A stretch of DNA of 64,000 nucleotides from Pseudobacteriovorax antillogorgiicola (lineage in GTDB: Bacteria > Bdellovibrionota_B > Oligoflexia > Oligoflexales > CAIYRB01): the NCBI GenBank assembly GCA_945862295.1, contig CAMAXT010000003.1, forward strand, positions 9,550-73,549. The letters run 5' to 3'. Shown piece after piece: positions 34,245 to 63,242 of this stretch. Numbering within the stretch: the stretch's first letter is position 1; each line of letters begins with the position of its first letter. The notes beneath the pieces were generated by a model. The model did not search any database. It was not told the DNA's origin and was given only the letters and a program-made list of their open reading frames with translations. The position numbers and the translations under genes were made by a program.

Positions 34245-34401
34245 ATTAACCCCCTCATTGCCCCTCAAAAATCTCAGCAGGCAAAAGTACAAACGAGTCG
34301 TGACCTTCCCTATAACTAATCATGAGCCAATTGCGGAAACCCTGACGCACGGCGAGATAAGCAATCGATAACCAAATCAAACGTCAATGGGAGTCTTAGG
34401 A

Positions 34402-35325
34402 ATGAAAACAATCCTGATACTTTTGGGAAGCATGAGCTTAGTTTTAAGCTGCAACTACTCAAGGGTCAAAACAACAGCCGCACCGCCGAGTGAAAATCAA
34501 CCTGGCTCAATCACTGACAGCCAATGGCTAACGCAGAACTTATTCCAAGCCCGTTGTGCCAGTTGCCACAATAGCGGCAGGCAACCTGGCGGACATAAAT
34601 TCGAAACAGAAAAAGACCTACTAGACAACGTCGTTAGAAAGACAATCGTTGCTGGGTCTCCATCTACAAGTTCTATATACACAATTATAGAAAGCGGCGC
34701 GATGCCGACACGCGGCGACAAAGCTACTCCAACAGAACTCTCAGTCCTATCATGCTGGATCACTGAAGGGGCTACAGCGGATTCAACAACCTGCGTACAA
34801 AAATTTGGACTAAGCGGCACTGCAAATCCGGGTGGAAACCCAGGGTCAGGAACCCCAACACCTATCCCAACATCTACACCAACACCTACTCCATCACCTA
34901 CACCTGACCCAGGGAACGACGACGGTGGAGGTGACGACAATGGCGATGATGATGACAACGGTGATGACGACAACAACGGCGAAGATGATAACGGCGGTAA
35001 TGACGATGACGGCAATGGCGAAGGCGGCGGCGATGGTGGAGAGGTTCCGGTTGTTATGTTCTCAGAAATCCAGCAACCAATTCTTACAGACCGTTGCGCC
35101 GGTTGCCACGGGTCTGAAAATCCCGCTGCACACGTCGTCCTTTTAAGTCTCGAAAATATTAAAAATCCCACTACTGGTCCTGCGTTAGTACAGTGCGGAA
35201 ACGCAAGCGCGAGTTTGCTTTATACAGTCGTAGCATCTGATGACATGCCGGCATTTTCTGAAGCTCTGTCACCGGATCTGAAACTTAAATTGAAAAACTG
35301 GATCGATGGTGGGTGCCAACCGTGA
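34402..35325 (+). CDS. Lipoprotein with two c-type cytochrome domains (planctomycete cytochrome c-like) joined by a Pro/Thr and Asp/Gly linker
   Basis: Lipobox VLSC; CASCH...MP...WI and CAGCH...MP...WI domains; linker TPTPIPTSTPTPTPSPTP followed by GDDDNG-type repeats. Confidence 0.85.
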   Translation: MKTILILLGSMSLVLSCNYSRVKTTAAPPSENQPGSITDSQWLTQNLFQARCASCHNSGRQPGGHKFETEKDLLDNVVRKTIVAGSPSTSSIYTIIESGAMPTRGDKATPTELSVLSCWITEGATADSTTCVQKFGLSGTANPGGNPGSGTPTPIPTSTPTPTPSPTPDPGNDDGGGDDNGDDDDNGDDDNNGEDDNGGNDDDGNGEGGGDGGEVPVVMFSEIQQPILTDRCAGCHGSENPAAHVVLLSLENIKNPTTGPALVQCGNASASLLYTVVASDDMPAFSEALSPDLKLKLKNWIDGGCQP

Positions 35326-36458
35326 GCTACATCAAAAATTTTTCTCATACTATAATTGCAGCTGTCTTCAGCCTATTTATTGGCCAAAGCCACGTTGCGC
35401 AAGCATTCCCACAGTTTTCGGGAGACGGCTACTTCAGCTGTACCTCTTGTCATGTTAGCACAAGTGGCGGCGACGCTCTCACCGCCTATGGTCGCTCATT
35501 TGCTGAAGAAAAGTTAACCACCTGGAGTTTCGAAGGTGAAGGTAAAACTCTGCATGGGAGCGTGAACATTCCAGAATGGTTACTCGTTGGCGGGCATGTC
35601 CGAATGATCCAAGTACACTACGAAGACTCTAAAATTTCTCAAGGAAACTTCTTCGTAATGCAGCGAGAAGTCGACCTTGGCTATGCCGGCGACGCCCTAA
35701 AATTTTACATCACTGTCGCAAACGAGCGTGATGAAGCCGGCGAATACGATACGAAAACCGTCACTATGCCGAAGTGGGTTGTGCGTTACGACATATTAGA
35801 AAAATTCTCTATTAGGGCAGGAAAAACCCCACCGAAATTCGGCTTAAACATTGCCGATCACAATGCTTACATCAGACGAAACATTGGCCTCGGAACAGAA
35901 GCGGACGAAAATCTTATCGAAGCCTCCTATTTTTCTGAAACCATCGAAGTTAATATCTCTCAGTCAGCAGCGTTTTTGCCTGCTGTGAAAGAACCGAACG
36001 AGGTAGACCCAGGTAGCTATTCAAATACCTATGCAAACTTGTCATACTTTTTTCTCGAAAAGCAGAGGGTTTCGACCAGCTTTCTTCGTCGCAAGAAAGT
36101 AGAAAGCTTGGAACAGATCGGCTCTGTGTCCTTGGCATTGACTCCAGCTGAAAAAGTACGAGCGCTCTTTGAGTATAACGCGGGCGAACGAGAAGTCAGT
36201 GACGTTAAGACGAAACTTCAAAACAGCTTCAGTCAGGTCATTTTTGAATCGTTCAAAGGTGTCTTTCCAAATATCACCTACCATTATCAAACTAGTAAAT
36301 CAGGTGCTGAAGAGTCAAGAGGCGACAAAATTGCCGCTGGCTTAGCTTGGCATCCTCGCCCCCATTTCGAGTTCTCAGGATCCTTCGGATCGGTTCGAAA
36401 TCTTAAGACATATACGTACGGTCACTCAGGTTTCTTAATGTTTCACTATTGGTTATAG
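35313..36458 (+). CDS. Monoheme cytochrome-porin fusion (Cyc2-like)
   Basis: Signal peptide, then AFPQF...CTSCH...LTAYGRSF resembling the Cyc2 N-terminal pattern; barrel ending FHYWL; alternative GTG start at 35322 overlaps the upstream stop. Confidence 0.7.
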   Translation: MPTVSYIKNFSHTIIAAVFSLFIGQSHVAQAFPQFSGDGYFSCTSCHVSTSGGDALTAYGRSFAEEKLTTWSFEGEGKTLHGSVNIPEWLLVGGHVRMIQVHYEDSKISQGNFFVMQREVDLGYAGDALKFYITVANERDEAGEYDTKTVTMPKWVVRYDILEKFSIRAGKTPPKFGLNIADHNAYIRRNIGLGTEADENLIEASYFSETIEVNISQSAAFLPAVKEPNEVDPGSYSNTYANLSYFFLEKQRVSTSFLRRKKVESLEQIGSVSLALTPAEKVRALFEYNAGEREVSDVKTKLQNSFSQVIFESFKGVFPNITYHYQTSKSGAEESRGDKIAAGLAWHPRPHFEFSGSFGSVRNLKTYTYGHSGFLMFHYWL

Positions 36459-36466
36459 GAGAAGAA

Positions 36467-37039
36467 ATGAAAGTTCGAATTTTTCCACTATTAATGACGG
36501 CGGCAGGGTTTTTTCCGCAAGCAAAGAGTGCTTCAGCTGCTCAGCAGTATGAAGTCGTAGAATCCGGATCATCGGTTGGTTTTCTGGCTGTTGGTAAGCC
36601 AGGATTTCTAAAGATCAGAGGTGAAGGCGGCACCATAAAAGGTAATGCGGAAGTAGAAGGCAATGGCTTCAAAGGGACATTCAATGCGAAGCTTCCGGCG
36701 ATAAAAACAGGTATCGACCTTCGAGACGAGCACATGCACGAAAAATACCTCGAAACAGGTAAGTATCCGGAAGCTATCCTCACTCTTTCTGAAGTTAAAT
36801 TTGAAAACGGCATTGCTGGAAAATGCTCGTTCAAAGGCGAACTCACCGTTAAGAACGTCGCCAAGCCGATCACTGGTGACTGCACTATCGACGGTCTCAC
36901 TGGTGACACGGTCTCTGTCAAAGCGGCTACTGAGATTAACATAGAAGACTTCCCGATCGGTGTACCATCGCATTTGGGTATCAAAGTCGCCGACAAGATC
37001 ACAATCTCAACTGAGTTCCAAGCTAAGAAGAAATCATAG
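36467..37039 (+). CDS. YceI-family periplasmic lipid/isoprenoid-binding protein
   Basis: IKTGIDLRDEHM, YPEAIL, GELTVKNVAKPI motifs; signal peptide; AGGAG RBS. Confidence 0.88.
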   Translation: MKVRIFPLLMTAAGFFPQAKSASAAQQYEVVESGSSVGFLAVGKPGFLKIRGEGGTIKGNAEVEGNGFKGTFNAKLPAIKTGIDLRDEHMHEKYLETGKYPEAILTLSEVKFENGIAGKCSFKGELTVKNVAKPITGDCTIDGLTGDTVSVKAATEINIEDFPIGVPSHLGIKVADKITISTEFQAKKKS

Positions 37040-37076: not shown

Positions 37077-37226
37077 TTTAATCCGGGTCCACCCGTGTTT
37101 AATCCGGGTCCACTCGAATTACGGATTACCAAACAAGAAAGAATCCCGAAGACCGCGAAGTCTTCAGGGGGTTCTTGAAATGCGTAATCAGTCGGGAGAC
37201 CCGGGCTCTCGGGTGGATCCGGATTA
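37077..37226. repeat. About 150-bp nested palindromic element between convergent genes (REPIN-like or bidirectional terminator)
   Basis: Two direct copies of tttaatccgggtccacYcg (37077, 37098) with inverted partners at about 37193-37226; inner stem aagaatcccgaagac/gtcttcagggggttctt. Confidence 0.7.
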
Positions 37227-37246: not shown

Positions 37247-37735
37247 TTAGTTGCGAACGCGGGCGGTAAGAATACCAGCGGCTTCATGCATAATAGATTG
37301 CTGAGCTTTTTCCATTAGAAGAATTTTTTCTGGCGAGTAGTTTCTTGAAGCAACGTAGGCTTTAGCTGCTTCAATGTTGATAGGGAAAATATCCTGATTA
37401 TTTTTCTTGAAAAAGATTGAGCACTCTATGTCTTTAGCCACTTTCGTACAAGTTGCGTTGCTCTCTGGTCCAGATAGAGTTAAAGGGTCACTCGAGCTAA
37501 CAGAATCAAGTTCGATCCACCGAGGATCAGCGCCATCAATTTGTTTTGGTAGCTTGTATCTTAAACTGATGAGGCCATTATTTTCGTTCCAATAAACATT
37601 TGTTGAGCGAAGAAGGACATCAACCTCTAAAAATTCACCAGCCGGAATTTTATAAACACCGCCGTCAGCAGCGAACGATGTTGTTGCACCGACTAATAAA
37701 AAAGCAGCTACTGGAAGCGCACGTAGAATACTCAT
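37247..37735 (-). CDS. Secreted hypothetical protein
   Basis: Signal peptide, AGGAG RBS, ATGA-type overlap with the upstream gene, one Cys pair. Confidence 0.75.
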   Translation of the reverse strand: MSILRALPVAAFLLVGATTSFAADGGVYKIPAGEFLEVDVLLRSTNVYWNENNGLISLRYKLPKQIDGADPRWIELDSVSSSDPLTLSGPESNATCTKVAKDIECSIFFKKNNQDIFPINIEAAKAYVASRNYSPEKILLMEKAQQSIMHEAAGILTARVRN

Positions 37736-39718: not shown

Positions 39719-40750
39719 CTATTTTAAACTCGAGGCCCTCCACATCGTTTTTTCCATTTGAGATCGGTAAGATAGGATCAAAATGCCTCCCCATACCAAA
39801 AGCATATAAGCCAGACTTATAGCTGGTAACCCAGTAAACAAACCCGTCCGTAAGGCTGCCATTTCCATGAACGGCGCACAGGCTACCATCAGATATTTCG
39901 CAGACTTATCGAGTTTGTCGAACTTAGCTTCACAAGCGATCACCGCAAACACCGCCGGAAAGATCGTCAGCCCGCTCATCACCACCCAACCTTCAAACCC
40001 AACTAACCAACCAATCAAAAGTGAATACAGAGCTGCGAGTGCAATCTCGTGTGCAATTTTCCAAAACCGCACAGACAAGATTGCAAACACGACGATGCCT
40101 AGCGCTTCGCTTTCAATAAAAAATATTTCTGAGAAGCCACGAAAGTAAGCGGTCGTTAACGCTGCAAAACTTACTGACTCGACAACCTCACCCGCTGGCA
40201 AACGAAACCAGTGAATAACACTTCCAGCCGAGACATACCAAAGTACCCACACAGTAAAGATGTAAGGCAAAACCAGAATCGGCAGATTCCAAGGTAGAAG
40301 AAGTCTTTTCGAAATCAACGCGAACATACTAACCAAAGCTGGAGCGATCAGACACATTGCAAAGAGTGACGTTAAACTCGCAGAAAAAGCTGCCAAAGCG
40401 AGCCCTAGAAAGATACCGTTAACTGCTAAGGATGAGTCAACAATGCCGGCACGATCGGTTTTTAAAAGGCGGCCGTACTGAATAGCTAAGAAGGCGCAGA
40501 TAAAACTTGCAGCAGCATGCTTAGGCGAGAATGCAAAGAGCGCGATGCCAAGGGTAATAGCAAATATTTTGCTGTTATTAAAAAATGTGTTGCTCAGGCC
40601 ATCCAAGAAAGGACACGCAACGACTTCAAAAGCTTGCTTTGCAATTCTTGAAACAGGCGATGCCACCTTTGTATTTGGCAGTACAGCACTAATATCATTT
40701 ATTCTTAAAGACTGACCCATTGAAAGCCTCCTAGGGTTTGATGCTGCCAC
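39719..40750 (-). CDS. Urea transporter (UT/Yut) family membrane protein
   Basis: Internal duplication GLSNTFF / GFSEIFF, NGIFLGLA, LPILVLPYIFTVW; about 10 TM helices. Confidence 0.7.
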   Translation of the reverse strand: MAASNPRRLSMGQSLRINDISAVLPNTKVASPVSRIAKQAFEVVACPFLDGLSNTFFNNSKIFAITLGIALFAFSPKHAAASFICAFLAIQYGRLLKTDRAGIVDSSLAVNGIFLGLALAAFSASLTSLFAMCLIAPALVSMFALISKRLLLPWNLPILVLPYIFTVWVLWYVSAGSVIHWFRLPAGEVVESVSFAALTTAYFRGFSEIFFIESEALGIVVFAILSVRFWKIAHEIALAALYSLLIGWLVGFEGWVVMSGLTIFPAVFAVIACEAKFDKLDKSAKYLMVACAPFMEMAALRTGLFTGLPAISLAYMLLVWGGILILSYRSQMEKTMWRASSLK

Positions 40751-41316
40751 TGCAAAACTTCTGATGACTCTACGCGTACTGCAAAATGCCCGTTGTGACC
40801 TTTTGTGATATCTGCGTCAAGCCAGACACCGTCAGTTGGATCGTAAAGTTCGCAGCGACTGTCAGACGTTTTTACAGCACAGATCTCGTGATAGACGAAA
40901 TTCTTAGAAACCCAAGGAAGGGAGTTTGCCGCGCCGTCCCAGCGTTTTTGCCAATGACTCGTGGCGGACTGTTGCTGAAGACGTAGCACCTGCGCATCAA
41001 AGCACTCGATACCTTTCGCAGCAAAGATTAGATTTGCAAAGGCTCGAAATAGACCGCAATCGATAACCGGCAAACTAACTGCTTCACACCAGTATACAGG
41101 CCATGCGGATGGTCCCCATTCATAAAAAGTTTTTAGCCATCCAGGTCCCGCGAGGCGCGCCCCATCGGTGACGCTGAAATCAAAGGACCTCGCCATAGCA
41201 ACCAGCCAGTTCCGTGCGTTCTTGCAACAATCCTTTCCCGCGTGCGACTGCACGTCAGGACAATTGTTTCTTATGATCAAGTTATTTTGTTCAATAACCG
41301 CCGCGGCCAAATTCAT
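40705..41316 (-). CDS. Hypothetical protein with a transglutaminase-like Cys-His-Asp triad
   Basis: IDCGLFRAFA...YHEICAV...LYDPTDG pattern; overlaps both neighbouring genes. Confidence 0.55.
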   Translation of the reverse strand: MNLAAAVIEQNNLIIRNNCPDVQSHAGKDCCKNARNWLVAMARSFDFSVTDGARLAGPGWLKTFYEWGPSAWPVYWCEAVSLPVIDCGLFRAFANLIFAAKGIECFDAQVLRLQQQSATSHWQKRWDGAANSLPWVSKNFVYHEICAVKTSDSRCELYDPTDGVWLDADITKGHNGHFAVRVESSEVLQWQHQTLGGFQWVSL

Positions 41317-43537
41317 AACTCATGCTCCTTTCGTAAGCGCCTGCATCACCAATAATAATTCTGTCACCGATGGCAATGTCATCTGGCAAATCAAGACCGT
41401 TTGAGACGATGTCGTCTTCCATACAGATCCGGCCAAGAACTTTGGTTCTGCCATTGCCGATTTTTACCAGGGTTTGCCCTGGTTTCTGCAAAAAGAATCG
41501 GTGCGGATAAACACCAATCAGAGGAAGCTCAGCGATACAAGTGTCAACAACAATCTCAACCGGGAGATCGCCAGTACGACGAACGTCAACAATTGTCGTT
41601 ACCAGTGCCATCGCATCTTGCGTCATCGCTCGGCCAGGCTCAATGATGACACGCTCGACGTGTTCTAAACTTTGCCGCATGAATGCTACGATCTCAGTCC
41701 AAGGAATTGTGAAAAGATCTCTCGGGTGGTAGCCGCCACCCATATCGATAACTGATACCTTCTTGCTCGTGGCCGCTTCGATGTTAAGCGCCCAAACAAG
41801 CATCGACTCAACAGCATCCTGCCAATGACTATTGCCGATAAGGTTGCTGGCTAGGTGCAGATGCACGCCGAATTTAATATGGCTAGGGATCTCTGAAATC
41901 ACTTGGCACAGTTCGTTGAATTTAGCCGGCGTGTCAATTTCAATGCCAAATCTAGATTTAAAACCGGGAATCTTTAAACGAACACCCCAGACTTGGTCGC
42001 TTCTATTTGATTGAATTAAGCGCTTAAGTTCTTCAACAGAGTCGGCGAAGACAGCGTAGAGACCGTCAAAAGACTCCATACTCATCGGCCACCACTTCGC
42101 AGGACCGTTTAAAATAATTTCAGATTTATTCCAACCAGTCTCTACCGCTCGTTTGACCTCGAGCATACTGATGCATTCACCAAGCATACCGGCGTTGCGA
42201 GCAGATTTACAAAACACTTCGTCAGGATTTGTTTTAATACTGTAACCGGCCACAAAACCGATCGACTTATTTTCTATAAGAAACTCTTTGATCGCCGAAA
42301 AATTCTTTTGCAGCATGCCCGGTAAGACCAATCGCTCAGGCGTTGGTCGCGCTTCAGAGATTTCGTCTCTAAGGTATGGCTCGACATCAGAGATCAGAAT
42401 CAAATCATCAGCCTCAGATACAGCTGCAGCGAACTTATGTTCAACCTCACGAGAATCCTTGTCGATAATATCAACCAAACTCGCCATTCCAGCGCCGTAT
42501 TTTCCTGACATTGAAATTTGCCCATGCAGCGGCTCAGAAACCAAAGGTAGAGGCGTGTGCTCAAGCACCGGAATCTCTGTCACCACGCGGGTGAACTGAT
42601 TGCTGCGCGGCGATGACGTCACCTCTGGCTTGAGACCGGTGAACGCTTCGAAAAGCATTGCTGGTAGATTTATTCCTGCGATCGCCGTACCAAAGATCCA
42701 TGCTGGAAACCTTGGGTTCATTTCCATAAACCAAAGCTTGCCGTCACTGTCTTTTAGCAACTCAATTTCAGCGCCGCCGCTCCAATTAATGTTCTTAACG
42801 GCGACTGCTAGGTGTTCTCGTAAGTATGTTTCCAGAGGCTCGATCTTTCCTGACCAGGTCTTGCCATCAGGAGTCGTGACACGCTTGCGCATATATACGG
42901 CGTCTAGGAGTTGTCCTTCCTTTGCAGAAAAGCAGATGCTTTCCTCGACACCTTTTTTATGGGCTTGGAGAAAGAGCTTATCTGAAGACCATTTCATACT
43001 GAGGTGGCTTCTTTGCGCGGAAAAAGTCTGCCAATTTCCTATGAAACTGGCATCGTGGTATGGACCTTTAAGCCAAAGACGCCACGCACTGCGACGACAG
43101 AAATCATGGATCTCGGTCTCATGACAATTGATCGTAAGAGTTTCCGGAACACCGAAAGGCAAAAACTCAGTGACTGATGCATAGGGTTTGCTCGCTGCCC
43201 TTAATGCGGACGTTGCTGGTGACAGCAGTCGCGGGTGATAGCCGATATTTTTCGCTAGCCATATAGTCTCAAGATCTAACGTTGGAATGTAGTACCCGCC
43301 TTCATCCAGAACTGTCTGAATAAAAGTTTTGTGCGTATCTAAGTCCATCAAATCCCAACTAGGATGAACAATAGTTTCATCAAATACATCGTGGTGCAGA
43401 CCAGAACTTCCCGCCCAATAATCCATTCCTATGATTTTAATATTGGGATAGGATTCGCGAATTGCGCGGGCGACACCTATGCCCGCCGAAGGGCTTGGAC
43501 CTGAGTAGAGACCTGAAATTAAAAGTTTGTTCGTCAT
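41291..43537 (-). CDS. Fusion of an ATP-grasp amide ligase and a fold-type III PLP-dependent decarboxylase
   Basis: N-half WLKGPY, EIELL, FMEMNPRFPAW; C-half YSIKTNP (PLP Lys), NGPAK, SRFG, HLH, DMGGG, EPGRA, GRICMEDD, GAY. Confidence 0.88.
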   Translation of the reverse strand: MTNKLLISGLYSGPSPSAGIGVARAIRESYPNIKIIGMDYWAGSSGLHHDVFDETIVHPSWDLMDLDTHKTFIQTVLDEGGYYIPTLDLETIWLAKNIGYHPRLLSPATSALRAASKPYASVTEFLPFGVPETLTINCHETEIHDFCRRSAWRLWLKGPYHDASFIGNWQTFSAQRSHLSMKWSSDKLFLQAHKKGVEESICFSAKEGQLLDAVYMRKRVTTPDGKTWSGKIEPLETYLREHLAVAVKNINWSGGAEIELLKDSDGKLWFMEMNPRFPAWIFGTAIAGINLPAMLFEAFTGLKPEVTSSPRSNQFTRVVTEIPVLEHTPLPLVSEPLHGQISMSGKYGAGMASLVDIIDKDSREVEHKFAAAVSEADDLILISDVEPYLRDEISEARPTPERLVLPGMLQKNFSAIKEFLIENKSIGFVAGYSIKTNPDEVFCKSARNAGMLGECISMLEVKRAVETGWNKSEIILNGPAKWWPMSMESFDGLYAVFADSVEELKRLIQSNRSDQVWGVRLKIPGFKSRFGIEIDTPAKFNELCQVISEIPSHIKFGVHLHLASNLIGNSHWQDAVESMLVWALNIEAATSKKVSVIDMGGGYHPRDLFTIPWTEIVAFMRQSLEHVERVIIEPGRAMTQDAMALVTTIVDVRRTGDLPVEIVVDTCIAELPLIGVYPHRFFLQKPGQTLVKIGNGRTKVLGRICMEDDIVSNGLDLPDDIAIGDRIIIGDAGAYERSMSYEFGRGGY

Positions 43538-43656
43538 GTAGTTTTTGCTCACAGAATTAAAGGCTACCAATGTCCTCACGACCGAGTTTAGGGACATGCG
43601 GGAAGGGTTGGTACTACCTTGAGCTGCGAAGAATGAGGCGATCTGAAGAGATATAA

Positions 43657-44103
43657 ATGATTAGAATCAAAGAAAAAAAGCGACCAACGGCCTTTCGGCG
43701 GGCGGTAGTGCAACGCCACCCAATGGGTTGCGCAGTGGCATGTGTGGCCTTTTCACTAGGCCTTTCTTACGACAAAGCTCTTAATTTTTTTCGCATAAAA
43801 AAAAATGCCTGGCTCAACGGTTTCATGTGCCCTGAGATCACCGCCATATTAAACGCCTCAAGCCAAATCGACTACAAATGGCGTCAAGTGAAAGGACCTC
43901 AAAGTAGTAAGTCATTGGCTCCAATGACCATCGTCTTCTGTAAACCTTCAAGGCACTATCCGCACGGACACTTCCTAGTTAAACGAAAAGAAGGTGAATT
44001 CATGAATCCCTGGATTAATTTTCCAGAGATCGCACCCGCCAAAGCCGGATTTCAGTCTAAGTTGCCATCTAAAATTAGCTACGTAATCGAGCCATCTACC
44101 TAA
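43657..44103 (+). CDS. Stand-alone C39-like cysteine peptidase
   Basis: QRHPMGCAVACVA (Q-x5-C), GHFLV His, MNPW. Confidence 0.65.
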   Translation: MIRIKEKKRPTAFRRAVVQRHPMGCAVACVAFSLGLSYDKALNFFRIKKNAWLNGFMCPEITAILNASSQIDYKWRQVKGPQSSKSLAPMTIVFCKPSRHYPHGHFLVKRKEGEFMNPWINFPEIAPAKAGFQSKLPSKISYVIEPST

Positions 44104-55209: not shown

Positions 55210-57567
55210 TTAGTTTAACGTCGAAACGCGAAATTTCCGCAGCGCTGTGCGTCCGCCAGAAGAAACGACGGTCAGTTCGTGCTCCCCCTTTACAGGAGTC
55301 CACCACACCTGTTCATCAATACGAACAGTTTTTAAAAAAGTTCCATTAAGAAACCATGAAACCTCTTCAGTACCACTATGCCCTTCAACCTCAAATGACA
55401 TCTCCTGCTTAGAGGGATCTAAGCCAGGAATCAGCATCATCACCTTATTCTTTGCGGGAGAAATAATGCGTAACTCTTCATCTTTCGCAATATGGACGCA
55501 AGCTGGATGAATTTTCGGTAAATCGGGAAGATACCGATTAGCCGTATTCATATACCGCCGGACACCTTGCGGCCAATTCATAAACGTCCCACGCTCAGTG
55601 ACGCGACCCGCACGGCAAGTCGGTCCAACAGCTAGACCACTCGCAGTCTCAATTTCCATTTCTGTATGATAGGGGCAGACGCCGGTTGGCAGATTATGAA
55701 TCAATGCCGAGACCAGACGTTTATGCGGACAAGCGTGCGACGGCAAATGTCCAGAAAAACTGCAAACCTCGACATCAGCAATGGAGCGTGGCTTCTCGTC
55801 GTCTGCTGGTTTATTGGTGTCATTTAAGTTCTCTAAGATATCAAAGAGTAGAGGCGCGGCCATATCCGCGCCGACTAATGCGTGACTTGGAGCGTAATCA
55901 ACGTTACCGAACCAAACCACCGCCGTGTATTTACCCGATGAGCCAGCAGCCCAAGCATCTCGATGCCCGAAACTCGTTCCGGTTTTCCAAAAAACATCTG
56001 TTGGTACCTTGGTGAAATCGCGGCGCCGTGGAAAATCCGGACGATCTCTGATACGTAACGCCTTTCGCGTTAACCACGTCGCGCCGGGAGAAAACACCTG
56101 CATTGCTACCGGTAAGGTTTGAACGTTACCTTGACTCAACCAACGGAGAGGAATGAAAGAACCGTCACGGGCTAATGCGGTATAAAGGCCCGCGATTTCA
56201 AGCGCCGTAAATTCAATGCCGCCAGCAGCAACGGAAAGACCGTAATGCCCAGGAGATTTTTGAATTCTAGTAATATCAAATTGAGATATGGTCCCAAGAA
56301 ACCGCTCTATCCCGATTTGCTGCAGCAAACTTACAAATGGAATATTGAGTGAACGCGCCAACGCATCTTCAACGCGCAGGAGACCATTAAAATTATTGTC
56401 GAAGTTTTTTGGTGTATAGCCACCGTAGTTTGTCGGAATATCCGTAATCAAGCGGTCAGGAATAATCATTCCAAGATCAAGTGCATGCGCGTAGATAAAG
56501 GGCTTAAGAAGCGAGCCCGGGGACCGTGGAATTTGAAACCCAGCGATTTGCGATCCTGGCCGCTTATTCCAAAAATCTATCCCGCCGATGATTGCTTTGA
56601 CTTCTCCCGTCGCCGTCTCGACGACAATGGCAGCATGATTATGAACCCCTTGATCAGCAGCATGCCGGCCCTCCCGCAATGACAAATCCGTCAAAAGCCC
56701 CTGCACTGCCGGATCTATCGTGGTGTTAACATCTCCAGCCCCTGCCCCCGCCTGCTGTAGCCAATAAGCCAAATGCGCCACGTCCCTAGGAAAGGGCTTT
56801 AACCGCTTTGGCACCTCCGCCGCAAGTACCGATTCAAGCGACTCCTGACCTTCACCAAAAACACCTGCCGCATACATCTGCTTTAAAATTTTATCCCGCG
56901 CCTCTTGCAACTTCACCACATGCTTCGGATCAGGAAATCTTTTAGACGGCAGCTGCGGTACAGAAAGCAACACTGCAATTTCATCTGGTGAAAGATTGCT
57001 CGCGCTGTGACCAAAATATGCCCAGGAAGCTGTTTCGACACCCTCGATATTTTTACCAAAAGAAATATAGGTCATGTAAGCAGAAAGGATCTCTTTTTTT
57101 GACATGCGCATTTCTAATTGCAACGCGCGAAAGGCTTCAATGAATTTCGAACCAAAAGATCGTCGCCTCGGTTCGAGAACCCGAACCAATTGCATCGTCA
57201 ACGTCGAAGCACCAGATACGACTTTGCGTTGCATAAAATTTTGCAGCGTTGCTCGCGCAATCGCAATTGGGTCAACACCAGGATGGAAATAAAAACGGCG
57301 GTCTTCGAAGGCGATTAATGCTCGTTTGTAATCAGGATCAATCCGCGCCATATCGGCATTAATACGCCATTTTTCATCGCCAGAAAGAAAGATAAACCCC
57401 GTTGAAAGGTCAGAAAATCTAATGACCGTTGACGGTGGCGTCGCTAAACGATCAGGAAGGGGTACTAGCCAAAAAACAGCAAGGAGCAGCGTTGCGAAAA
57501 TAACAGTAGCCAGCAAACGAGGTCTGCTGGCCGCTTTCGAAAAAACCATCTTAACAGTCGTCGTCAA
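55210..57567 (-). CDS. pbpC: Penicillin-binding protein 1C
   Basis: EDRRFYFHPGVD, GASTLTMQ, SLLKP (SxxK), SLN, KTGTS; directly downstream of alpha-2-macroglobulin. Confidence 0.95.
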   Translation of the reverse strand: MTTTVKMVFSKAASRPRLLATVIFATLLLAVFWLVPLPDRLATPPSTVIRFSDLSTGFIFLSGDEKWRINADMARIDPDYKRALIAFEDRRFYFHPGVDPIAIARATLQNFMQRKVVSGASTLTMQLVRVLEPRRRSFGSKFIEAFRALQLEMRMSKKEILSAYMTYISFGKNIEGVETASWAYFGHSASNLSPDEIAVLLSVPQLPSKRFPDPKHVVKLQEARDKILKQMYAAGVFGEGQESLESVLAAEVPKRLKPFPRDVAHLAYWLQQAGAGAGDVNTTIDPAVQGLLTDLSLREGRHAADQGVHNHAAIVVETATGEVKAIIGGIDFWNKRPGSQIAGFQIPRSPGSLLKPFIYAHALDLGMIIPDRLITDIPTNYGGYTPKNFDNNFNGLLRVEDALARSLNIPFVSLLQQIGIERFLGTISQFDITRIQKSPGHYGLSVAAGGIEFTALEIAGLYTALARDGSFIPLRWLSQGNVQTLPVAMQVFSPGATWLTRKALRIRDRPDFPRRRDFTKVPTDVFWKTGTSFGHRDAWAAGSSGKYTAVVWFGNVDYAPSHALVGADMAAPLLFDILENLNDTNKPADDEKPRSIADVEVCSFSGHLPSHACPHKRLVSALIHNLPTGVCPYHTEMEIETASGLAVGPTCRAGRVTERGTFMNWPQGVRRYMNTANRYLPDLPKIHPACVHIAKDEELRIISPAKNKVMMLIPGLDPSKQEMSFEVEGHSGTEEVSWFLNGTFLKTVRIDEQVWWTPVKGEHELTVVSSGGRTALRKFRVSTLN

Positions 57568-57581
57568 AATTCAGTTGCCTA

Positions 57582-60500
57582 TCATTTGCCCGAAACTTCG
57601 TCCCAAGGACTCTTAATATTAGTTACACCACCAACTTCGCGCGCCCAAATTCTTGGATCATACATCGCCTCAGCTTCAACTGGAGGAATTGCGAACCTTC
57701 CAGCTAATACAGCCCTCGAAGCGTAATAAACCTTTCTAGTTTCGTAAGGCTTTAAAGCACCAAATACTTCGATTCTGTCGTCTCTGATGTTCATGTAATC
57801 TGCTGCCCAAACCTGTTCAGTATCGATAAACTCAGCCGTTGTGCCACGCCCTAACCGCGGGTTTTCTATCTCCCAACCGGCAGGAAACCGGTCGACAAGA
57901 GCAATGTTATCGATGCGCTCTGCAGTCTTATTGCGAATAACAAGTTCGGTGTAGATGATGCCTGCGAGCGACACTCCAGATTCAGTATTTAACTGACTGC
58001 CATCAGACTTTTTATAGTTTCTAGAGATATCGATGCCTTCGCCACCTGTTTTGAAGTCAGCAGCTTTCAAAATACCTTCACTAGAAATAATTGCGTAGAG
58101 TTTCCCTTCACCCTTTTTCCCAATGTTTAAGGTAACACTCTTCTTCTCAGTAGCGCGGTTTACGATCCATGAAAGTTTCGCCTGCGGTTTTCTTTTTGAA
58201 CCGTCAACAGAAAGCTCGGCATCGTAATTTGAGGCTCCGCCTGACACAAATTTCCCAAGTCCCGTAACTGACCAAACGAGTTCCTGCGTTGTGTAGTAGC
58301 CGCTGTTCTTACCGCGGAGGTACCCAGCAACAACATCGGCCAAGGGACTGCCGGCGGCATCAGACCCGAAGAGATCAGAAAATACGCTCAACATGATGCC
58401 GCGACGACGGAAGTCGGAATAGAATGACCAAGAGTTTTTCCTCTCACCTGTAATAGTCGAGATATCTGGGTGCTTTAAATCCCCTGCAAACCGGTGATCA
58501 CCCATAAGATGCAGCGCTGCCATGAGGAGATATTTATCTTCTTGAACTTGGCTTTCCTTTGTCAATGTTTGACTGTTTAAGTCGGTTAGGAACGCTTCAG
58601 TGTCTGCTTTGAGACCTTTCCCTCCTAGTGCAAGAACATAATAAATGTAAGGTGCTGCTTCACTCAATTCATTGTAGTGGTTGGACTGTTTGGATCTAAC
58701 GCTGCCGTTAACCATCTTATCACTAAGAAATTTCAGCGCTTCATCTACACGCTCTTTCGCAACGGGAAAATTCATCTTTTGAGCATCTAATAGCATATGA
58801 GTTGCATACGCTGTCCCCCAATTAGTTGGGGATGTAGAACCCGGCCAATAGGCAAAGCCGCCTGATGAGGTTTGCATTGAAAGAACCCTAGCTATACCTT
58901 TTGCTACCATGTCGTCGATCGCACCAGCGCTAGAAAATGTCGCTGGATCAACTTGATCTAGAAGATCGCGGATGACCAACAGTGGTCTAGTTGAAGACGT
59001 CGTCTGCTCAATGCATCCGTGCGGATACTGTACTAGATATTTCAAATGTTGAAGCGAATCAGCATAGGGATTACTTGTGAGCCAAACTGAAGTTCGTTCG
59101 GTTCCAGGTACAAAATCGTCAAATTGCGGCTTAAGTTCGACCGTATCTCCGGCCACATCAACTCTTTTGGTAACTCGAGATTTTGGTTTTGCAGATAAAA
59201 TCGGAACATCCAGGTCTTCAAAAGATTCAATCGAGCCAGCTTTAGCTTTAACTTTAAACTGCACCGCACCACCCGTTGCAATTGTCGTCGCTTTAAAGAC
59301 AATTGTCTTGGACGCACCAAGATTAATGCTTACTTTCGATATTTCTGGTGCAACAACCGAAACCAATGCGACAGCGGGGTCTTCGTTGCTTGACTCCAAA
59401 TTGGCAACATCGAGGCTAAGACTAACTTCTTGCGCTTTACCGGACATATTGGTCACTGTGACCGGAATATCAAACTGGTCTCCTTCAGTCATAAAGCGCG
59501 GCAAAGATGTTTGCAATACCAGCGGATCACGAACAAATACCTGCGCTGAACCTGAAGCAATTCTCTTCTTATCGGCAGAGACCACCATGACACGCAACTG
59601 CCCGCGGTACTGCGGCACCTCTAGACTAACGGAGATTTTGCCGTTTTCGGGAACCTGTTTTAGTCCACTCCAAAGAGCGACTGGTTTAACAAGTGATACC
59701 GGAGTTTCATTCTCGCTGCCATCACCTCCGTGCGTGCTCGACGTACCGGAGCCTGGCAGCATTACATTCCAACCGAAGGTTTCAAATGTTTCAATGCCAA
59801 GAGCTCTCGGTTCAAAAATTGTCTTTATAGGATCAGGCGTTTTAAAGCGGGTAAGGGACAAGATCCCCTCATCAACAGCCGCCACTGTTACAAATCTACC
59901 AGCTTCTGATTTCGGAAACTCAAGGTCGACTGTTAGAGTAGAATTTGGCTTTATCTCTTCGGCTACTTCAATTTTTATACTGTCAGAAAACTCTTCAGGT
60001 TCAACTCGGAAAGAGTGCACGCCAAAGGCGCGGTCTGGCATAAAGCTTTGTGCAGATTCGAGGTGCGGATCCTTGATCAGAAATGCACTGACGTAAACGT
60101 TCGGATAAAATTCTTTTAAATCAAATTCCCAGGTGGTCTTTCCAGCCGCTACTTCAATCCATTTTGAATCAATGATACGGTCCGTTTCCGCCGTTAACAG
60201 CAACCGGCCTTTGAAGGGTATCGTCGCTTCAACTATGACGCTTTTTCCCTTTTTGACAATCTCTGGACCGGTAATTTGAATCCAACTTGGTTTAAGAGGC
60301 TTCGGAGTTTGGTCTCTAGAGGATTCGTTCGGCCACCAGTAATAGTCGTTATCAGTACCACCGAGCGTCAAATCGGTTCGCGCCTTGCCAAGTGATGCTT
60401 TTAGAAGAAATCCACTGGCGTTGGTATTGACTGGAATAGACCCTTTGAAGCGGCCATTCTTTGCCTGAACCTGAAGTTTAGTTTCGGTAACTTGCCGCTG

Positions 60501-63242
60501 AAATCTCTTGTAGCTGCTGCCTTCGTCGTCGCTCCAACTCCAGTCGTATTCAGACTCAAGTCGAACAAACTCAAGTTGGATCTCTTCATCCTTTGGCAAA
60601 ATTTCACCGTTCCAGTCGACGATCACCCCTTCAAAAACAAAGGCGTCACCTTTCTGCAAACTTTTCATTCCTGATGAAAGTCCAACATAGAATGCCTCTG
60701 GATGGACTGGGACAGAGACTGTGTTTTGCGTACTCCTACCAGACTCGCCTTCGAAGACTGCGACTTTTGCTTGCAATGACGCACTACCAGCAAAACCACC
60801 ACTCTTCTCTGATACTGGGCAGCTAAGCGTGATCGTGTCGTCCTCACCTATCTCGCCATTGACCATACCAAGCGCTACTGACTTCGGCTCTTTGTTGTCT
60901 GTGTAGTAGACTCCGTAATAGTAATTGCTATTTTTTGCGGGTGTAAACTTACTAGGCCAAAGTTCGCAATTCAGTTCCACCTTACTGCCAGCAGCAGAAC
61001 CACCGAAGAGGTAGCGAGACTCAATCTGAAACTTAGATTCCTGATTTCGAGCAAGGTTCTCTGACATCGCTTTTATATCGACCTTCATACGCTCGGGCAT
61101 AAAGTCTTCGACATTAAACGTGTAGCGACCGATTTCTTTATCACCAGCTTTCGCGACAACAAGATATTTGCCAGTAACCGCAAAGGATTCAAACTTGACG
61201 TCTGAATCCGCAAGACCAGCATTGTTTATCTTGAGGTTGAGTTTCTTTAGAAGTTTTTCGCGTGGGTCAAAAAGTTCGAGCAACACCGGCATATCGGCCG
61301 GTGGCGCAAGATTGTCTGCGCCTCTGAGTAACGCTACAATATGAGCAGTTTCACCTGGACGGTAAACACCGCGGTCACTGTAGATCGCTGCTTTATACGG
61401 AGTATCTCCACCGCTAAAAGGACGGCCCTGAATCAGTTGTTCAGAAACTTCCGTTTTTAGTTCGCTAAATTTCAAGTAAGTCAGGTCACTCTCTTTACTC
61501 GCTAAGATGGCGAACGGCTCTGATGGATCGATCTCTTTTGATTTATCCCAGTTCATAGTGCAATGACCGTCGCTGTCAGAGTTACAAGTCGCGAGCGCTC
61601 TACCACTCTTTGTGATCATTTTGACTTCAACACCAGAGATTGGCTTTACGTTGTGAAAATCGATCGCCCAGACTTTTATCTGCTTACCGTTTTCGCCGCG
61701 TTTGACGAGGAGGTTGATATCGGTCGCAATGAGTCGCTTGAGATCGGGTGCGGACTTTCCTGCTTTGTCCCGCACAGAAAATTCGATCACCCCGCGCGGA
61801 ATATTTGGCATGACGTCATCTAGGGACAGCACATGCGTCGCGAGCGTGTCAGGTTTGCCATCAAATTTGACGGTCGACTTCAGAATCAAATTCGAGTTTC
61901 GGTCGGTGGCTTTCTCAACGTCGTCACTAATCCAAAAGACAAGATTCTCAGCGGGAATATGTCTAACTTCGACTTCCGCTTCAGGTGTGTTCATGTGTTT
62001 GATTGCAATGTTTTTCCAGGAATCGCGCGACAGATAGCGACCTTGAGCCATGACAGAAACCTGAGGTTTTCTTCTCGGGATATTAAACTTTGTCGATTTC
62101 AGTGCTTTCACAACCCCGCCATCTGTGGTGCGTAGACCGGCGTTGATCGTCAGCGTCGTTTCGCCAAATTTAAAATCACCCAAAACGCGAAAACCGCCTC
62201 TGGACGGAACAACGGAGAACTCTTGTTCGGGCTGAATCGTTACGAATTGCTTCGCACTTTGTTCTTCCGGCGAGCATCTATCACTGACGTACATGCCGTC
62301 AGGGGTTTCATTATCATAATAGTAAATTCTGTTTTGATATGAGTCGTCGGTATCCGGAGCTCTTGCTCCATCGTTACAGATAACCTGGATATAGAATCCA
62401 TTCGTTCCCTCTTTAAGATTCATGCCTTTGACGATGACATCAGAACCTTCAAAAAGTTGAATGCTTAAATTTTTCGCCGTTGTAATCTTGTGACCACTTT
62501 CCAATGAAGGCAGACCTGCGTTAACCGTTACGCTGATTGACTCGGCTTTCCCTATAGCCGAAGCTGGCAAGATCGCGAGGATGCTATTTTTAGAGCCCCC
62601 GACTGAATACTTCGGAGTTAGGTTTGCTTTTTCCTTTGAGAACCGTAGAAAACTTCCAACTTTTCGGTAATCGACAGGACCAGTAAAAAGTACCTCAAAC
62701 TCGTGATCACCTGAGACGGAATTTATGCGTGAAAGGTTTGCTCTTTTTACAGCGAATTCTGGTGTCTCAAAAACACGCTCGACCTGGATAGACTCATCAG
62801 GTTTTACGGTTTTGCCGTCGATATTTACTGAAACCAATCTGACGCTATAGCTGGTCTTTAACTTAAACGCTTCAGTTGGTGTAAATATAATGGCGCTGTT
62901 TGATTCATAGCGCCACGTCCCAGTCACAGCAGGCTCGATTGAAAAAACCGTATCAGCTGGGATGGCAACAATTTCTGACGTTATTGGTCTTGCGAACTGA
63001 ACTTTCACAGCGTCAGGAACAACGCCGTCTTCACCAACGGTTTGGATTTGTGGTGCATAGTCTGCTAGAAGCGGTATTTCTTGCGTCAAAGGAGTTTCTT
63101 CTGCAGAAGTTTCTTCATTTTCTTCAATCACTCCATCAGTCTTTGACGACTGGTAGAATCTGAATGCAAAGAATCCTGCGAGGATCACCCCAACAAGTGC
63201 ACCAATGACAACTACAACTCTACCCTTTGGGCCCTTGAGCAT
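57582..63242 (-). CDS. Bacterial alpha-2-macroglobulin (YfhM-like)
   Basis: DRGVYRPGE, AAVDEGIL, thioester motif YPHGCIEQ, PAGWEIEN, EAMYDP; 1886 aa; paired with pbpC. Confidence 0.95.
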   Translation of the reverse strand: MLKGPKGRVVVVIGALVGVILAGFFAFRFYQSSKTDGVIEENEETSAEETPLTQEIPLLADYAPQIQTVGEDGVVPDAVKVQFARPITSEIVAIPADTVFSIEPAVTGTWRYESNSAIIFTPTEAFKLKTSYSVRLVSVNIDGKTVKPDESIQVERVFETPEFAVKRANLSRINSVSGDHEFEVLFTGPVDYRKVGSFLRFSKEKANLTPKYSVGGSKNSILAILPASAIGKAESISVTVNAGLPSLESGHKITTAKNLSIQLFEGSDVIVKGMNLKEGTNGFYIQVICNDGARAPDTDDSYQNRIYYYDNETPDGMYVSDRCSPEEQSAKQFVTIQPEQEFSVVPSRGGFRVLGDFKFGETTLTINAGLRTTDGGVVKALKSTKFNIPRRKPQVSVMAQGRYLSRDSWKNIAIKHMNTPEAEVEVRHIPAENLVFWISDDVEKATDRNSNLILKSTVKFDGKPDTLATHVLSLDDVMPNIPRGVIEFSVRDKAGKSAPDLKRLIATDINLLVKRGENGKQIKVWAIDFHNVKPISGVEVKMITKSGRALATCNSDSDGHCTMNWDKSKEIDPSEPFAILASKESDLTYLKFSELKTEVSEQLIQGRPFSGGDTPYKAAIYSDRGVYRPGETAHIVALLRGADNLAPPADMPVLLELFDPREKLLKKLNLKINNAGLADSDVKFESFAVTGKYLVVAKAGDKEIGRYTFNVEDFMPERMKVDIKAMSENLARNQESKFQIESRYLFGGSAAGSKVELNCELWPSKFTPAKNSNYYYGVYYTDNKEPKSVALGMVNGEIGEDDTITLSCPVSEKSGGFAGSASLQAKVAVFEGESGRSTQNTVSVPVHPEAFYVGLSSGMKSLQKGDAFVFEGVIVDWNGEILPKDEEIQLEFVRLESEYDWSWSDDEGSSYKRFQRQVTETKLQVQAKNGRFKGSIPVNTNASGFLLKASLGKARTDLTLGGTDNDYYWWPNESSRDQTPKPLKPSWIQITGPEIVKKGKSVIVEATIPFKGRLLLTAETDRIIDSKWIEVAAGKTTWEFDLKEFYPNVYVSAFLIKDPHLESAQSFMPDRAFGVHSFRVEPEEFSDSIKIEVAEEIKPNSTLTVDLEFPKSEAGRFVTVAAVDEGILSLTRFKTPDPIKTIFEPRALGIETFETFGWNVMLPGSGTSSTHGGDGSENETPVSLVKPVALWSGLKQVPENGKISVSLEVPQYRGQLRVMVVSADKKRIASGSAQVFVRDPLVLQTSLPRFMTEGDQFDIPVTVTNMSGKAQEVSLSLDVANLESSNEDPAVALVSVVAPEISKVSINLGASKTIVFKATTIATGGAVQFKVKAKAGSIESFEDLDVPILSAKPKSRVTKRVDVAGDTVELKPQFDDFVPGTERTSVWLTSNPYADSLQHLKYLVQYPHGCIEQTTSSTRPLLVIRDLLDQVDPATFSSAGAIDDMVAKGIARVLSMQTSSGGFAYWPGSTSPTNWGTAYATHMLLDAQKMNFPVAKERVDEALKFLSDKMVNGSVRSKQSNHYNELSEAAPYIYYVLALGGKGLKADTEAFLTDLNSQTLTKESQVQEDKYLLMAALHLMGDHRFAGDLKHPDISTITGERKNSWSFYSDFRRRGIMLSVFSDLFGSDAAGSPLADVVAGYLRGKNSGYYTTQELVWSVTGLGKFVSGGASNYDAELSVDGSKRKPQAKLSWIVNRATEKKSVTLNIGKKGEGKLYAIISSEGILKAADFKTGGEGIDISRNYKKSDGSQLNTESGVSLAGIIYTELVIRNKTAERIDNIALVDRFPAGWEIENPRLGRGTTAEFIDTEQVWAADYMNIRDDRIEVFGALKPYETRKVYYASRAVLAGRFAIPPVEAEAMYDPRIWAREVGGVTNIKSPWDEVSGK

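Follow-up and report, generated by a model that had tools for sequence, protein, structure and literature searches.

Several described pathways join an acid to an amino acid and then decarboxylate the conjugate with a pyridoxal 5′-phosphate (PLP) enzyme related to diaminopimelate decarboxylase (DAPDC). The available parts of a study of FigC attribute this logic to rhizoferrin synthesis by FigA/FigC (FslA/FslC) and to the SbnH and AcsE systems, describe butirosin synthesis by BtrI/BtrJ/BtrK as pairing an ATP-dependent ligase with a decarboxylase of the same clade that acts on a tethered glutamate, and place FigC, SbnH, AcsE, MccE and BtrK, all of which act on conjugates, in one clade with DAPDC (PMC7857480). 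A stretch of 64,000 nt (the window) of contig CAMAXT010000003.1 in the Pseudobacteriovorax antillogorgiicola assembly GCA_945862295.1 carries an operon of related composition, which encodes an ATP-grasp ligase fused to a fold-III (alanine-racemase-fold) PLP decarboxylase, then a thiol enzyme with a Cys-His-Asp triad, then a membrane protein of the urea transporter (UT) family. This module is real and widely conserved, and it serves neither lysine synthesis nor urease-linked urea uptake; its product is probably an amine-bearing small amide.

The locus differs from each of the described systems. The ligase of FigA/FigC is an NIS synthetase and a separate protein, and that system has neither a thiol enzyme nor a UT protein. 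Synthesis of the butirosin side chain also involves BtrH and BtrG, with BtrH a papain-type acyltransferase of a later step; no carrier protein gene is seen here, two of the enzymes are fused here, and the two systems are likened by description, not by sequence. The synthesis of closthioamide also combines an ATP-grasp enzyme with a papain- or transglutaminase-like maker of amide bonds (the papain-like amide ligases CtaD/CtaG), according to the available parts of two reports (PMC7183216, PMC12865890); it acts on carrier-bound thioesters, and there are no carrier, thioamidation or p-hydroxybenzoic acid (PHBA) genes here. A search of the full-text literature, with subscription journals and supplements outside its scope, found no description of an ATP-grasp/fold-III decarboxylase fusion, of its thiol-enzyme partner or of the UT link, in agreement with a first-pass annotation, made without database searches, that knew of no characterized pathway with this fusion and gene set. 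The enzymatic logic is already known from FigA/FigC and BtrJ/BtrK; the novelty lies in the fusion with an ATP-grasp domain, in the family of the thiol enzyme and in the use of a UT-type membrane protein.

Conservation of the module

Neighbouring genes were counted by profile search of six-frame open reading frames (ORFs) in 83 loci, comprising 80 metagenome loci obtained by alignment query and the genome loci L001, L020 and L021; L010-L012 were left out, since they duplicate the window, L020 and L021. A single-protein scan of genome contigs gave nine loci, one a true orthologue and eight with short ATP-grasp motif matches that were not used. The thiol enzyme is encoded directly downstream of the fusion on the same strand in 65 of the 65 loci that contain the 3′ end of the fusion and at least 600 nt beyond it. 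A UT gene lies downstream in 24 of the 48 loci that extend at least 1700 nt in that direction, and a gene for the divergent 148-aa papain-type protein of the window lies upstream in five of the 64 loci with at least 600 nt there. Among 131 genomes of the window's phylum, six encode the fusion (the window's own included), and the thiol-enzyme profile matches exactly those six, abutting the fusion. The genes for the fusion and its thiol-enzyme partner form an inseparable pair. The co-occurrence on which the first-pass annotation depended thus holds throughout for the thiol enzyme, within one clade only for the UT protein, and just occasionally for the gene that it called C39-like.

In a tree of 54 full-length fusion proteins, all 21 UT-linked rows and two rows with short flanks form one group (SH-aLRT 100) and a second group of 25 rows includes none with a UT gene; the tree comes from a quick IQ-TREE search, with the careful search unfinished and long branches flagged. 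The link of the UT gene to the enzyme pair is clade-specific but strong. With the Pfam UT model, matches occur in 12 of the 131 genomes: within the fusion operon in six, within a sister operon (described below) in five, and as contig-end fragments only in one; with the match in either operon in 11 of the 12 UT-bearing genomes, the UT family in this sample is therefore essentially a component of the fusion and sister operons and not of urea or urease metabolism.

At E ≤ 0.001, 560 relatives of the fusion were scored, and most of the best 120 of these are 735-765 aa long and cover 97% of the query. The labels of metagenome-assembled genomes among the relatives listed are Methylomirabilota, Polyangiaceae, Pseudobdellovibrionaceae, Burkholderiaceae, Allosphingosinicella, Pyrinomonadaceae and one Bathyarchaeia. 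A natural protein of 944 aa (P0208) combines ligase, decarboxylase and thiol enzyme in one chain, with 33% identity to the fusion over 720 residues and the thiol domain at residues 756-940; it is one representative only, and an artefact of gene calling may account for it. Two fusion orthologues (G001:C101:5405-7681 and G087:C8:21019-23292) contain one in-frame TGA each, which might reflect an error of sequencing, gene disruption or recoding.

Proteins of the module and its relatives

The decarboxylase half of the fusion matches both Pfam domains of its family above their cut-offs (Orn_Arg_deC_N, 57.5 bits against 23.4; Orn_DAP_Arg_deC, 25.5 bits against 23). Its identity to FigC is low, and it aligns equally to plant DAPDC (PDB 6n2a, 59 bits) and to FigC/FslC (7kh2, 58 bits). 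Compared with both structures it keeps the PLP lysine (SIKTN), the stacking histidine of HLHL, the GGG and EPGR motifs and Cys725, and K455, H581, G620-622, E653, G655, C725, M726 and D729 are invariant in an alignment of 17 fusions; the roles of the PLP-site residues are as described in the available parts of the FigC study (PMC7857480). The decarboxylase is intact, as had been proposed from its motifs. It is also not a housekeeping enzyme, in keeping with the earlier proposal: its best NCBIfam match is lysA (TIGR01048) at 88.9 bits, far below the cut-off of 297.9, while a true lysA scoring 451 bits lies on another contig of the assembly, and the FslC model (NF041039) gives 69.1 bits against a cut-off of 500. 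The name 'diaminopimelate decarboxylase', which hundreds of database entries carry, is wrong for them.

The residue that follows the catalytic cysteine of the decarboxylase is methionine (CMEDD) in all 17 fusions. FigC has CMQHD at the same place, its M355 being next to the catalytic cysteine, and its substrate is N-citrylornithine, according to the available parts of that study (PMC7857480). This shared Cys-Met signature is a hint, not proof, that the fused decarboxylase may act on an acylated or tethered amino acid, and it gives indirect support to the order in which ligation precedes decarboxylation.

The ligase half falls short of the Pfam ATPgrasp_Ter cut-off (22.9 bits against 29.1), but its assignment by the first-pass annotation is upheld by a modelled fold and by invariant residues. 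The model of residues 21-420 (pLDDT 86.1) has a complete three-domain ATP-grasp fold, and K137, K238, E277, E279, E292, N294 and R296 are invariant in the 17 aligned fusions; these residues (Lys, a Glu pair and E-x-N-x-R) presumably bind Mg-ATP. In VIA-align, 65 chains match at Z of at least 8, the nearest being 2pn1, a protein of unknown function (Z 21.1, root-mean-square deviation 3.1 over 271 residues), followed by glycinamide ribonucleotide synthetase (20.6), PylC (20.4), PurK (19.9), BacD (19.6), PurT (19.1) and RizA (16.4), with LysX (14.8), RimK (13.4-15.9) and the macrocyclases of ribosomally synthesized and post-translationally modified peptides (RiPPs) MdnC/AMdnB (about 13-14) lower; many ATP-grasp enzymes are tied within 1-2 Z units, and the specific substrate is not readable from Z. 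The model thus appears nearest to small-molecule ligases and farther from LysX, RimK and the RiPP macrocyclases; PylC, BacD and RizA, among its nearest solved folds, are only 11-15% identical to it. Foldseek matched it to biotin carboxylases at E 1e-14 and to 2pn1 with TMt 0.70. Two other identities for this domain were rejected, namely a RiPP macrocyclase, on account of the low Z for MdnC/AMdnB, and an enzyme of urea carboxylase-like bicarbonate chemistry, since the biotin carboxylase fold matches are generic and there is no biotin carrier.

The 203-aa thiol enzyme has no Pfam or NCBIfam match at E ≤ 0.01, including the Transglutaminase core (PF01841), and its matches to PDB sequences are at chance level only. 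The Cys-His-Asp triad that was read from its sequence is confirmed as Cys87-His143-Asp159, which is invariant in 24 aligned relatives together with Cys30, Cys31, Cys77 and several tryptophans. A profile search of 1.84 billion representatives gave 385 clusters with E ≤ 0.001, of which 180 have E ≤ 1e-30; the best 150 of the 385 are mostly 190-250 aa long, and the triad is kept in them as Cys in 146, His in 148 and Asp in 138 (with Asn in another seven). In the structure model (pLDDT 85.6), Cys87 starts helix 87-100, and His143 and Asp159 are on the next strands, 140-149 and 154-159. The model matches 3kd4 (Z 8.1), bacterial transglutaminase (8.0), TG3/factor XIII (7.8-8.0), PeiP (7.6) and GdmF (7.3) in VIA-align, where Z of 7-8 is typical of the best match for models without a clear one, and arylamine N-acetyltransferases are found at Z 5-6.5. 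Matches 1-28 of the 50 listed (Z 8.1 to 5.4) are transglutaminases, PNGase/Rad4, PeiP/PeiW, LapG, vasohibin, N-acetyltransferases, and other papain-type proteases or axonemal chains; the best Foldseek matches are mostly of the same kinds at E 0.01 or weaker, and ESM Atlas provides a lead to Transglut_core clusters (score 0.91). Structure prediction, which had been recommended for this ORF, has returned a transglutaminase/papain-like fold, and the list of matches, modest in score but consistent, points to a new transglutaminase/papain-like family with a Cys-His-Asp triad. The protein is taken to be cytoplasmic because it contains no hydrophobic segment. Among longer forms of the thiol enzyme, one of 376 aa (P0259) carries a C-terminal GNAT acetyltransferase and one of 584 aa (P0162) a Cys-rich C-terminal part of no assigned identity; the idea that P0162 is a fusion of thiol enzyme and UT protein was rejected (hhalign probability 0.2).

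The 343-aa membrane protein is a member of the UT family, as the first-pass annotation recognized. It scores 80 bits with Pfam UT (cut-off 25), and although the single sequence has no match to PDB sequences at E ≤ 0.01, a profile of 18 members of its subfamily finds UTs of solved structure, both bacterial and mammalian, with E 1e-36 to 1e-21, including the Desulfovibrio-type UTs 3m6e (E 1.5e-36) and 3k3f (E 4.6e-35) and the mammalian UT-A/UT-B. Membership in the family of dvUT and UT-A/UT-B is clear, but the signature motifs are altered: where the solved UTs have WDLPVFTLPF and PALTWPF, the protein of the window has WNLPILVLPY and LPAISLAY. The signature threonines of UTs matter for urea flux. 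In the 18 subfamily rows, the equivalent of the first-half threonine is Val, Ile or Leu in 17, that of the second-half threonine is Ser in ten, Ala in seven and Thr in one, and Tyr replaces Phe in both motif halves in 17. The Yut equivalog model gives 62.3 against a cut-off of 274.6; the protein belongs to a divergent UT subfamily. It is encoded by the sole UT gene of the assembly, and the absence of urease that was noted for the window extends to the whole assembly (77.7% complete), where the best match to the urease alpha subunit is 19.9 bits against a cut-off of 680.

Relatives without the fusion have separate genes for an ATP-grasp ligase (340-357 aa) and a decarboxylase (453-481 aa), which are 23-28% identical to the respective halves of the fusion. 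In this sister operon, the decarboxylase gene is followed by one for a protein of about 700 aa in eight of the eight loci examined; Pfam identifies this protein as UT plus Peptidase_M23 in two loci and as M23 alone in two others, and in genomes G005, G006, G010, G035 and G070 the UT model hits an ORF of about that length at the same position. No hydrophobic segment separates UT from M23 in the sister proteins that were scanned (L022, L023). UT-M23 fusions are listed among bacterial UT architectures in a 2026 domain survey, the available passages of which give neither their gene context nor their function (PMC12998343). The ORF of 82-83 aa that abuts the sister ATP-grasp gene is PqqD-like in both of the two loci, out of the eight, in which it was tested (48.4 and 38.7 bits, cut-off 23.4), and the operon continues with a protein of about 400 aa that has a weak outer-membrane-barrel match, then a tetratricopeptide repeat (TPR) protein or an ABC-2 exporter. 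The sister operon resembles that of the window in having a ligase, a decarboxylase with the Cys-Met signature (seven of the seven sister decarboxylases examined), an enzyme of amide-cutting type and a UT domain; it differs in that its ligase and decarboxylase are separate, an M23 metallopeptidase fused to UT takes the place of the free thiol enzyme, and a PqqD-like protein is present. The literature search described above found no account of this operon.

In the clade that lacks the UT gene, the fusion has one or two tandem genes upstream of it, each for a protein of about 250 aa, and several loci have a divergent TauD-type dioxygenase (examples are L054:5086-13659, L069:5128-7967 and L060:84-1603). 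The proteins of about 250 aa share an invariant H-x-D...H; they match PDB sequences at chance level only, and ESM Atlas provides a lead to Asp/Asn/Pro hydroxylases (score 0.96). At one of these loci, L054, an OPT oligopeptide transporter is encoded downstream. The gene content of this clade looks like natural-product chemistry; in the fungal E-64 pathway, an ATP-grasp ligase and an amide bond synthetase occur together with an iron/2-oxoglutarate oxygenase, according to the available part of its description (PMC12568646).

Proposed chemistry and its rivals

The reading that we favour, with a confidence slightly short of even, is that the module ligates, decarboxylates, and then transfers or releases a small molecule, the UT protein serving as a conduit for small uncharged species. 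We infer every chemical step of this scheme, in which a cytoplasmic amide-building module independent of nonribosomal peptide synthetases would be coupled to a membrane channel. The ATP-grasp domain would activate a carboxylate as an acyl phosphate and join the acyl group to the amino group of an amino acid, leaving the alpha-amino-acid end free in a side-chain acylation of the PylC/FigA type; PylC acylates a side-chain amine and leaves the alpha-amino-acid end free. The fused decarboxylase, as its active-site signature supports, would then strip the alpha-carboxylate from the conjugate to produce an amine-ended amide. The Cys-His-Asp enzyme would form an acyl-thioester on Cys87, from which the acyl group might be passed to another amine, or it might hydrolyse the amide to release the final compound. 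Finally, in the window's clade, the divergent UT protein would allow a small uncharged product, precursor or by-product to cross the inner membrane.

A more far-reaching proposal, which we regard as unlikely, is that the UT proteins here are not urea channels but are dedicated to a new class of decarboxylated amides, as ports through which these leave or enter or as platforms for docking, with an enzyme that cuts or transfers amides working where the pore opens inward (the Cys-His-Asp enzyme here, M23 in the sister operon); the whole would be a channel-coupled biosynthetic release machine distributed patchily over many phyla, with the thiol enzyme as the obligate partner of the ligase-decarboxylase. 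If the module operates as proposed, the UT family, known only for the movement of urea, would have a second widespread role alongside a biosynthetic enzyme pair, and a new family of Cys-His-Asp enzymes (385 representative clusters, none in Pfam) would have a fixed partner that makes its chemistry testable. The scheme of ligation followed by decarboxylation of the conjugate, known from rhizoferrin and butirosin synthesis, would then also cover an ATP-grasp fusion that occurs in many phyla, in soil, lake and sediment alike, and the product would probably be an undescribed metabolite.

Several observations weigh against the favoured scheme. The other 24 of the 48 loci with room for a UT gene have none, and near-copies among the 83 loci (L035-L038; L027, L030 and L034; L078 and L079) mean that the counts overstate independence. 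Both signature motifs of the UT protein are altered, and the subfamily may conduct nothing urea-like. The Cys-Met argument comes down to one residue together with the docking of the FigC study. The thiol enzyme has fold matches of modest score (Z about 8), many of them hydrolases, and it may either transfer or hydrolyse; its nearest folds also include the amide-forming acyltransferases GdmF and arylamine N-acetyltransferases. Lastly, a PqqD-like, peptide-binding start and an M23 peptidase in the sister operon are a better fit to peptide chemistry, and the Asp/Asn-hydroxylase-like proteins of the clade without UT (identified by a lead only) are of kinds that often act on peptides.

The main rival, which we consider somewhat unlikely, is a carrier-templated pathway with the logic of BtrI/BtrJ/BtrK, LysW/LysX or the scaffold-peptide ('pearlin') pathways, in which the amino acid would be attached by the ATP-grasp domain to a peptide or small carrier protein at a carboxylate, decarboxylated in place, and cut off by the thiol enzyme or M23. 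It would account for the PqqD-like protein that opens the sister operon and abuts the ATP-grasp gene, for a third enzyme of peptidase type in both operons, and for the two Asp/Asn-hydroxylase-like proteins and TauD-type oxygenase of the clade without UT; moreover BtrK, a decarboxylase of the same clade, acts on carrier-bound glutamate, according to the available parts of the FigC study (PMC7857480). Against it, the window's operon contains no PqqD-like, carrier or precursor gene, the spacer being just 59-119 nt on the upstream side of the fusion and 61 nt past the UT gene, and clustering of the ORFs of the 83 loci found no conserved ORF of at least 70 aa beside the fusion. The structure model of the ligase also appears nearer to small-molecule ligases than to LysX, RimK and RiPP macrocyclases.

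Glutathionylspermidine (Gsp) synthetase/amidase has the architecture of a papain-type amidase joined to an ATP-grasp synthetase, and a comparable reversible conjugation might operate here: a diamine would be made first from a free amino acid, a carboxylate would be ligated to it, and the thiol enzyme, as an amidase working in the opposite direction, would control how much conjugate there is. The three activities that this requires all occur in the module, never apart, and one member of the thiol-enzyme family is fused to GNAT, an amine-acylating fold. We nevertheless judge this improbable: the Cys-Met signature speaks against a free side-chain amine in the substrate, the ligase-first domain order and the fusion itself suit the passing of a conjugate to the decarboxylase, and Pfam, NCBIfam and the other searches detected no sequence similarity to Gsp.

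A catabolic role, in which the UT protein would bring in a small compound of amide or ureido type for the thiol enzyme to hydrolyse and the fusion would process the freed amino acid, is less probable again. UT channels are passive and can work inward, and the M23 domain of the sister protein follows UT without a further membrane segment, so that its place would be at the cytoplasmic opening of the channel if the C-terminus of UT is cytoplasmic, as it is in solved UTs. An ATP-consuming ligase would be unusual in catabolism, however; half of the loci with room for a UT gene have the fusion and thiol enzyme without it; and the clade without UT, with its oxygenases, looks biosynthetic. Very improbable is a housekeeping lysine or polyamine decarboxylase that merely neighbours a urea channel with no common pathway, for although some sources name the fusion 'diaminopimelate decarboxylase' and lysA is its best NCBIfam match, that match is far below its cut-off, the true lysA is elsewhere, no urease was found in the assembly, and the adjacency is strict across phyla in a module that is itself patchy (6/131 genomes).

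Gene layout and flanking genes

Three overlapping ORFs on the minus strand and a divergent fourth, as listed in the first-pass annotation, are present in the window (Table 1), along with the motifs that it quoted: EMNPRFPAW, YSIKTNP, DMGGG and CMEDD in the 768-aa protein, and DCG, YHE and YDP in the 203-aa protein. The fusion and thiol-enzyme ORFs overlap by 26 nt (41291-41316), and the thiol-enzyme and UT ORFs by 46 nt (40705-40750). As relatives of the fusion begin at the equivalent of Met21 and the database form (P0005) is 748 aa long, the true start is probably Met21 at 43537, giving a protein of 748 aa.

Table 1. Coordinates, in the 64,000-nt window unless another locus is named, of the module, its domains and adjacent features
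Feature	Location	Strand	Basis or remark
Fusion, longest ORF, 768 aa	41291-43597	minus	ORF listing, translation, Pfam
ATP-grasp ligase domain, residues ~21-340	42578-43537	minus	Structure model, fold search
Fold-III (alanine-racemase-fold) PLP decarboxylase domain, residues ~420-768	41294-42340	minus	Pfam, PDB alignments
Thiol enzyme ORF, 203 aa	40705-41316	minus	ORF listing
UT-family membrane protein ORF, 343 aa, GTG start	39719-40750	minus	ORF listing
Divergent small papain-type protein, 148 aa	43657-44103	plus	ORF listing
TPR protein with C-terminal winged-helix helix-turn-helix (HTH), 641 aa	37732-39657	minus	Pfam
162-aa protein, signal-peptide-like N-terminus	37247-37735	minus	Hydrophobicity scan
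Terminator-like hairpin, 10 pairs	37145-37168	minus	79 nt past the last co-directional gene; pattern match only
Sister operon	L023:5353-12114 (G005), also L022, L107-L112		PqqD-like, ATP-grasp, decarboxylase, UT-M23; outside the window

Promoter and terminator scans gave counts not above those of shuffled sequence, with ten terminator-like sites in the region against 8.6 in shuffles. The G+C content is even across the window, the remainder of which is ordinary chromosomal DNA with fatty-acid synthesis genes, a peroxiredoxin, a PBP1c with alpha-2-macroglobulin, and others. The stretch was found in 14 sequencing runs, all of them DNA metagenomes from lake water, sediment, soil or groundwater, with no RNA run among the 14. 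An anti-phage defence system was considered and rejected: none of the core proteins (fusion, thiol enzyme, UT protein and 148-aa protein) matched a PADLOC defence model at E ≤ 0.01.

Two genes downstream of the UT gene may belong to the same cluster. The 641-aa TPR protein is co-directional with the operon and has a Pfam HTH_DeoR domain at residues 577-623 in addition to TPR, which makes it a candidate regulator; relatives with 32-37% identity adjoin the module in genomes G001, G024, G077, G082 and G087, and none was seen outside the window's phylum in the 80 metagenome loci. The 162-aa protein has a hydrophobic N-terminus (residues 1-19), and its relatives, at 26-30% identity, are encoded beside the UT gene in the same five genomes; it is predicted to be a lineage-specific member of the cluster.

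The divergent 148-aa protein was described by the first-pass annotation as a stand-alone C39-like peptidase. The divergent ORF stands, and Gln19, Cys25, His105 and Asn121 are invariant in six sequences of its family; the C39 label is weak, since Pfam Peptidase_C39 matches one of the six members at E 0.022 and leaves the window's own protein unmatched. The protein has no Pfam family, and its family has no PDB sequence matches. The gene is an occasional accessory of the module, found also upstream of the fusion in G082. At that locus (L001:6686-7429), the 148-aa gene adjoins one for a protein of 247 aa, in which an acidic repeat region is combined with a He_PIG Ig-like domain.

On the plus strand of the window, 34387-37039 encodes a di-haem cytochrome c that includes a Planctomycete cytochrome C domain, a protein of 381 aa that belongs to no family, and YceI; genes for the latter two are also found near the module in G024 (L020), making the flank partly syntenic. 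Farther away, on the minus strand at 55210-63242, a PBP1c-type penicillin-binding protein (785 aa) adjoins a bacterial alpha-2-macroglobulin of 1886 aa, the usual pairing of these two genes.

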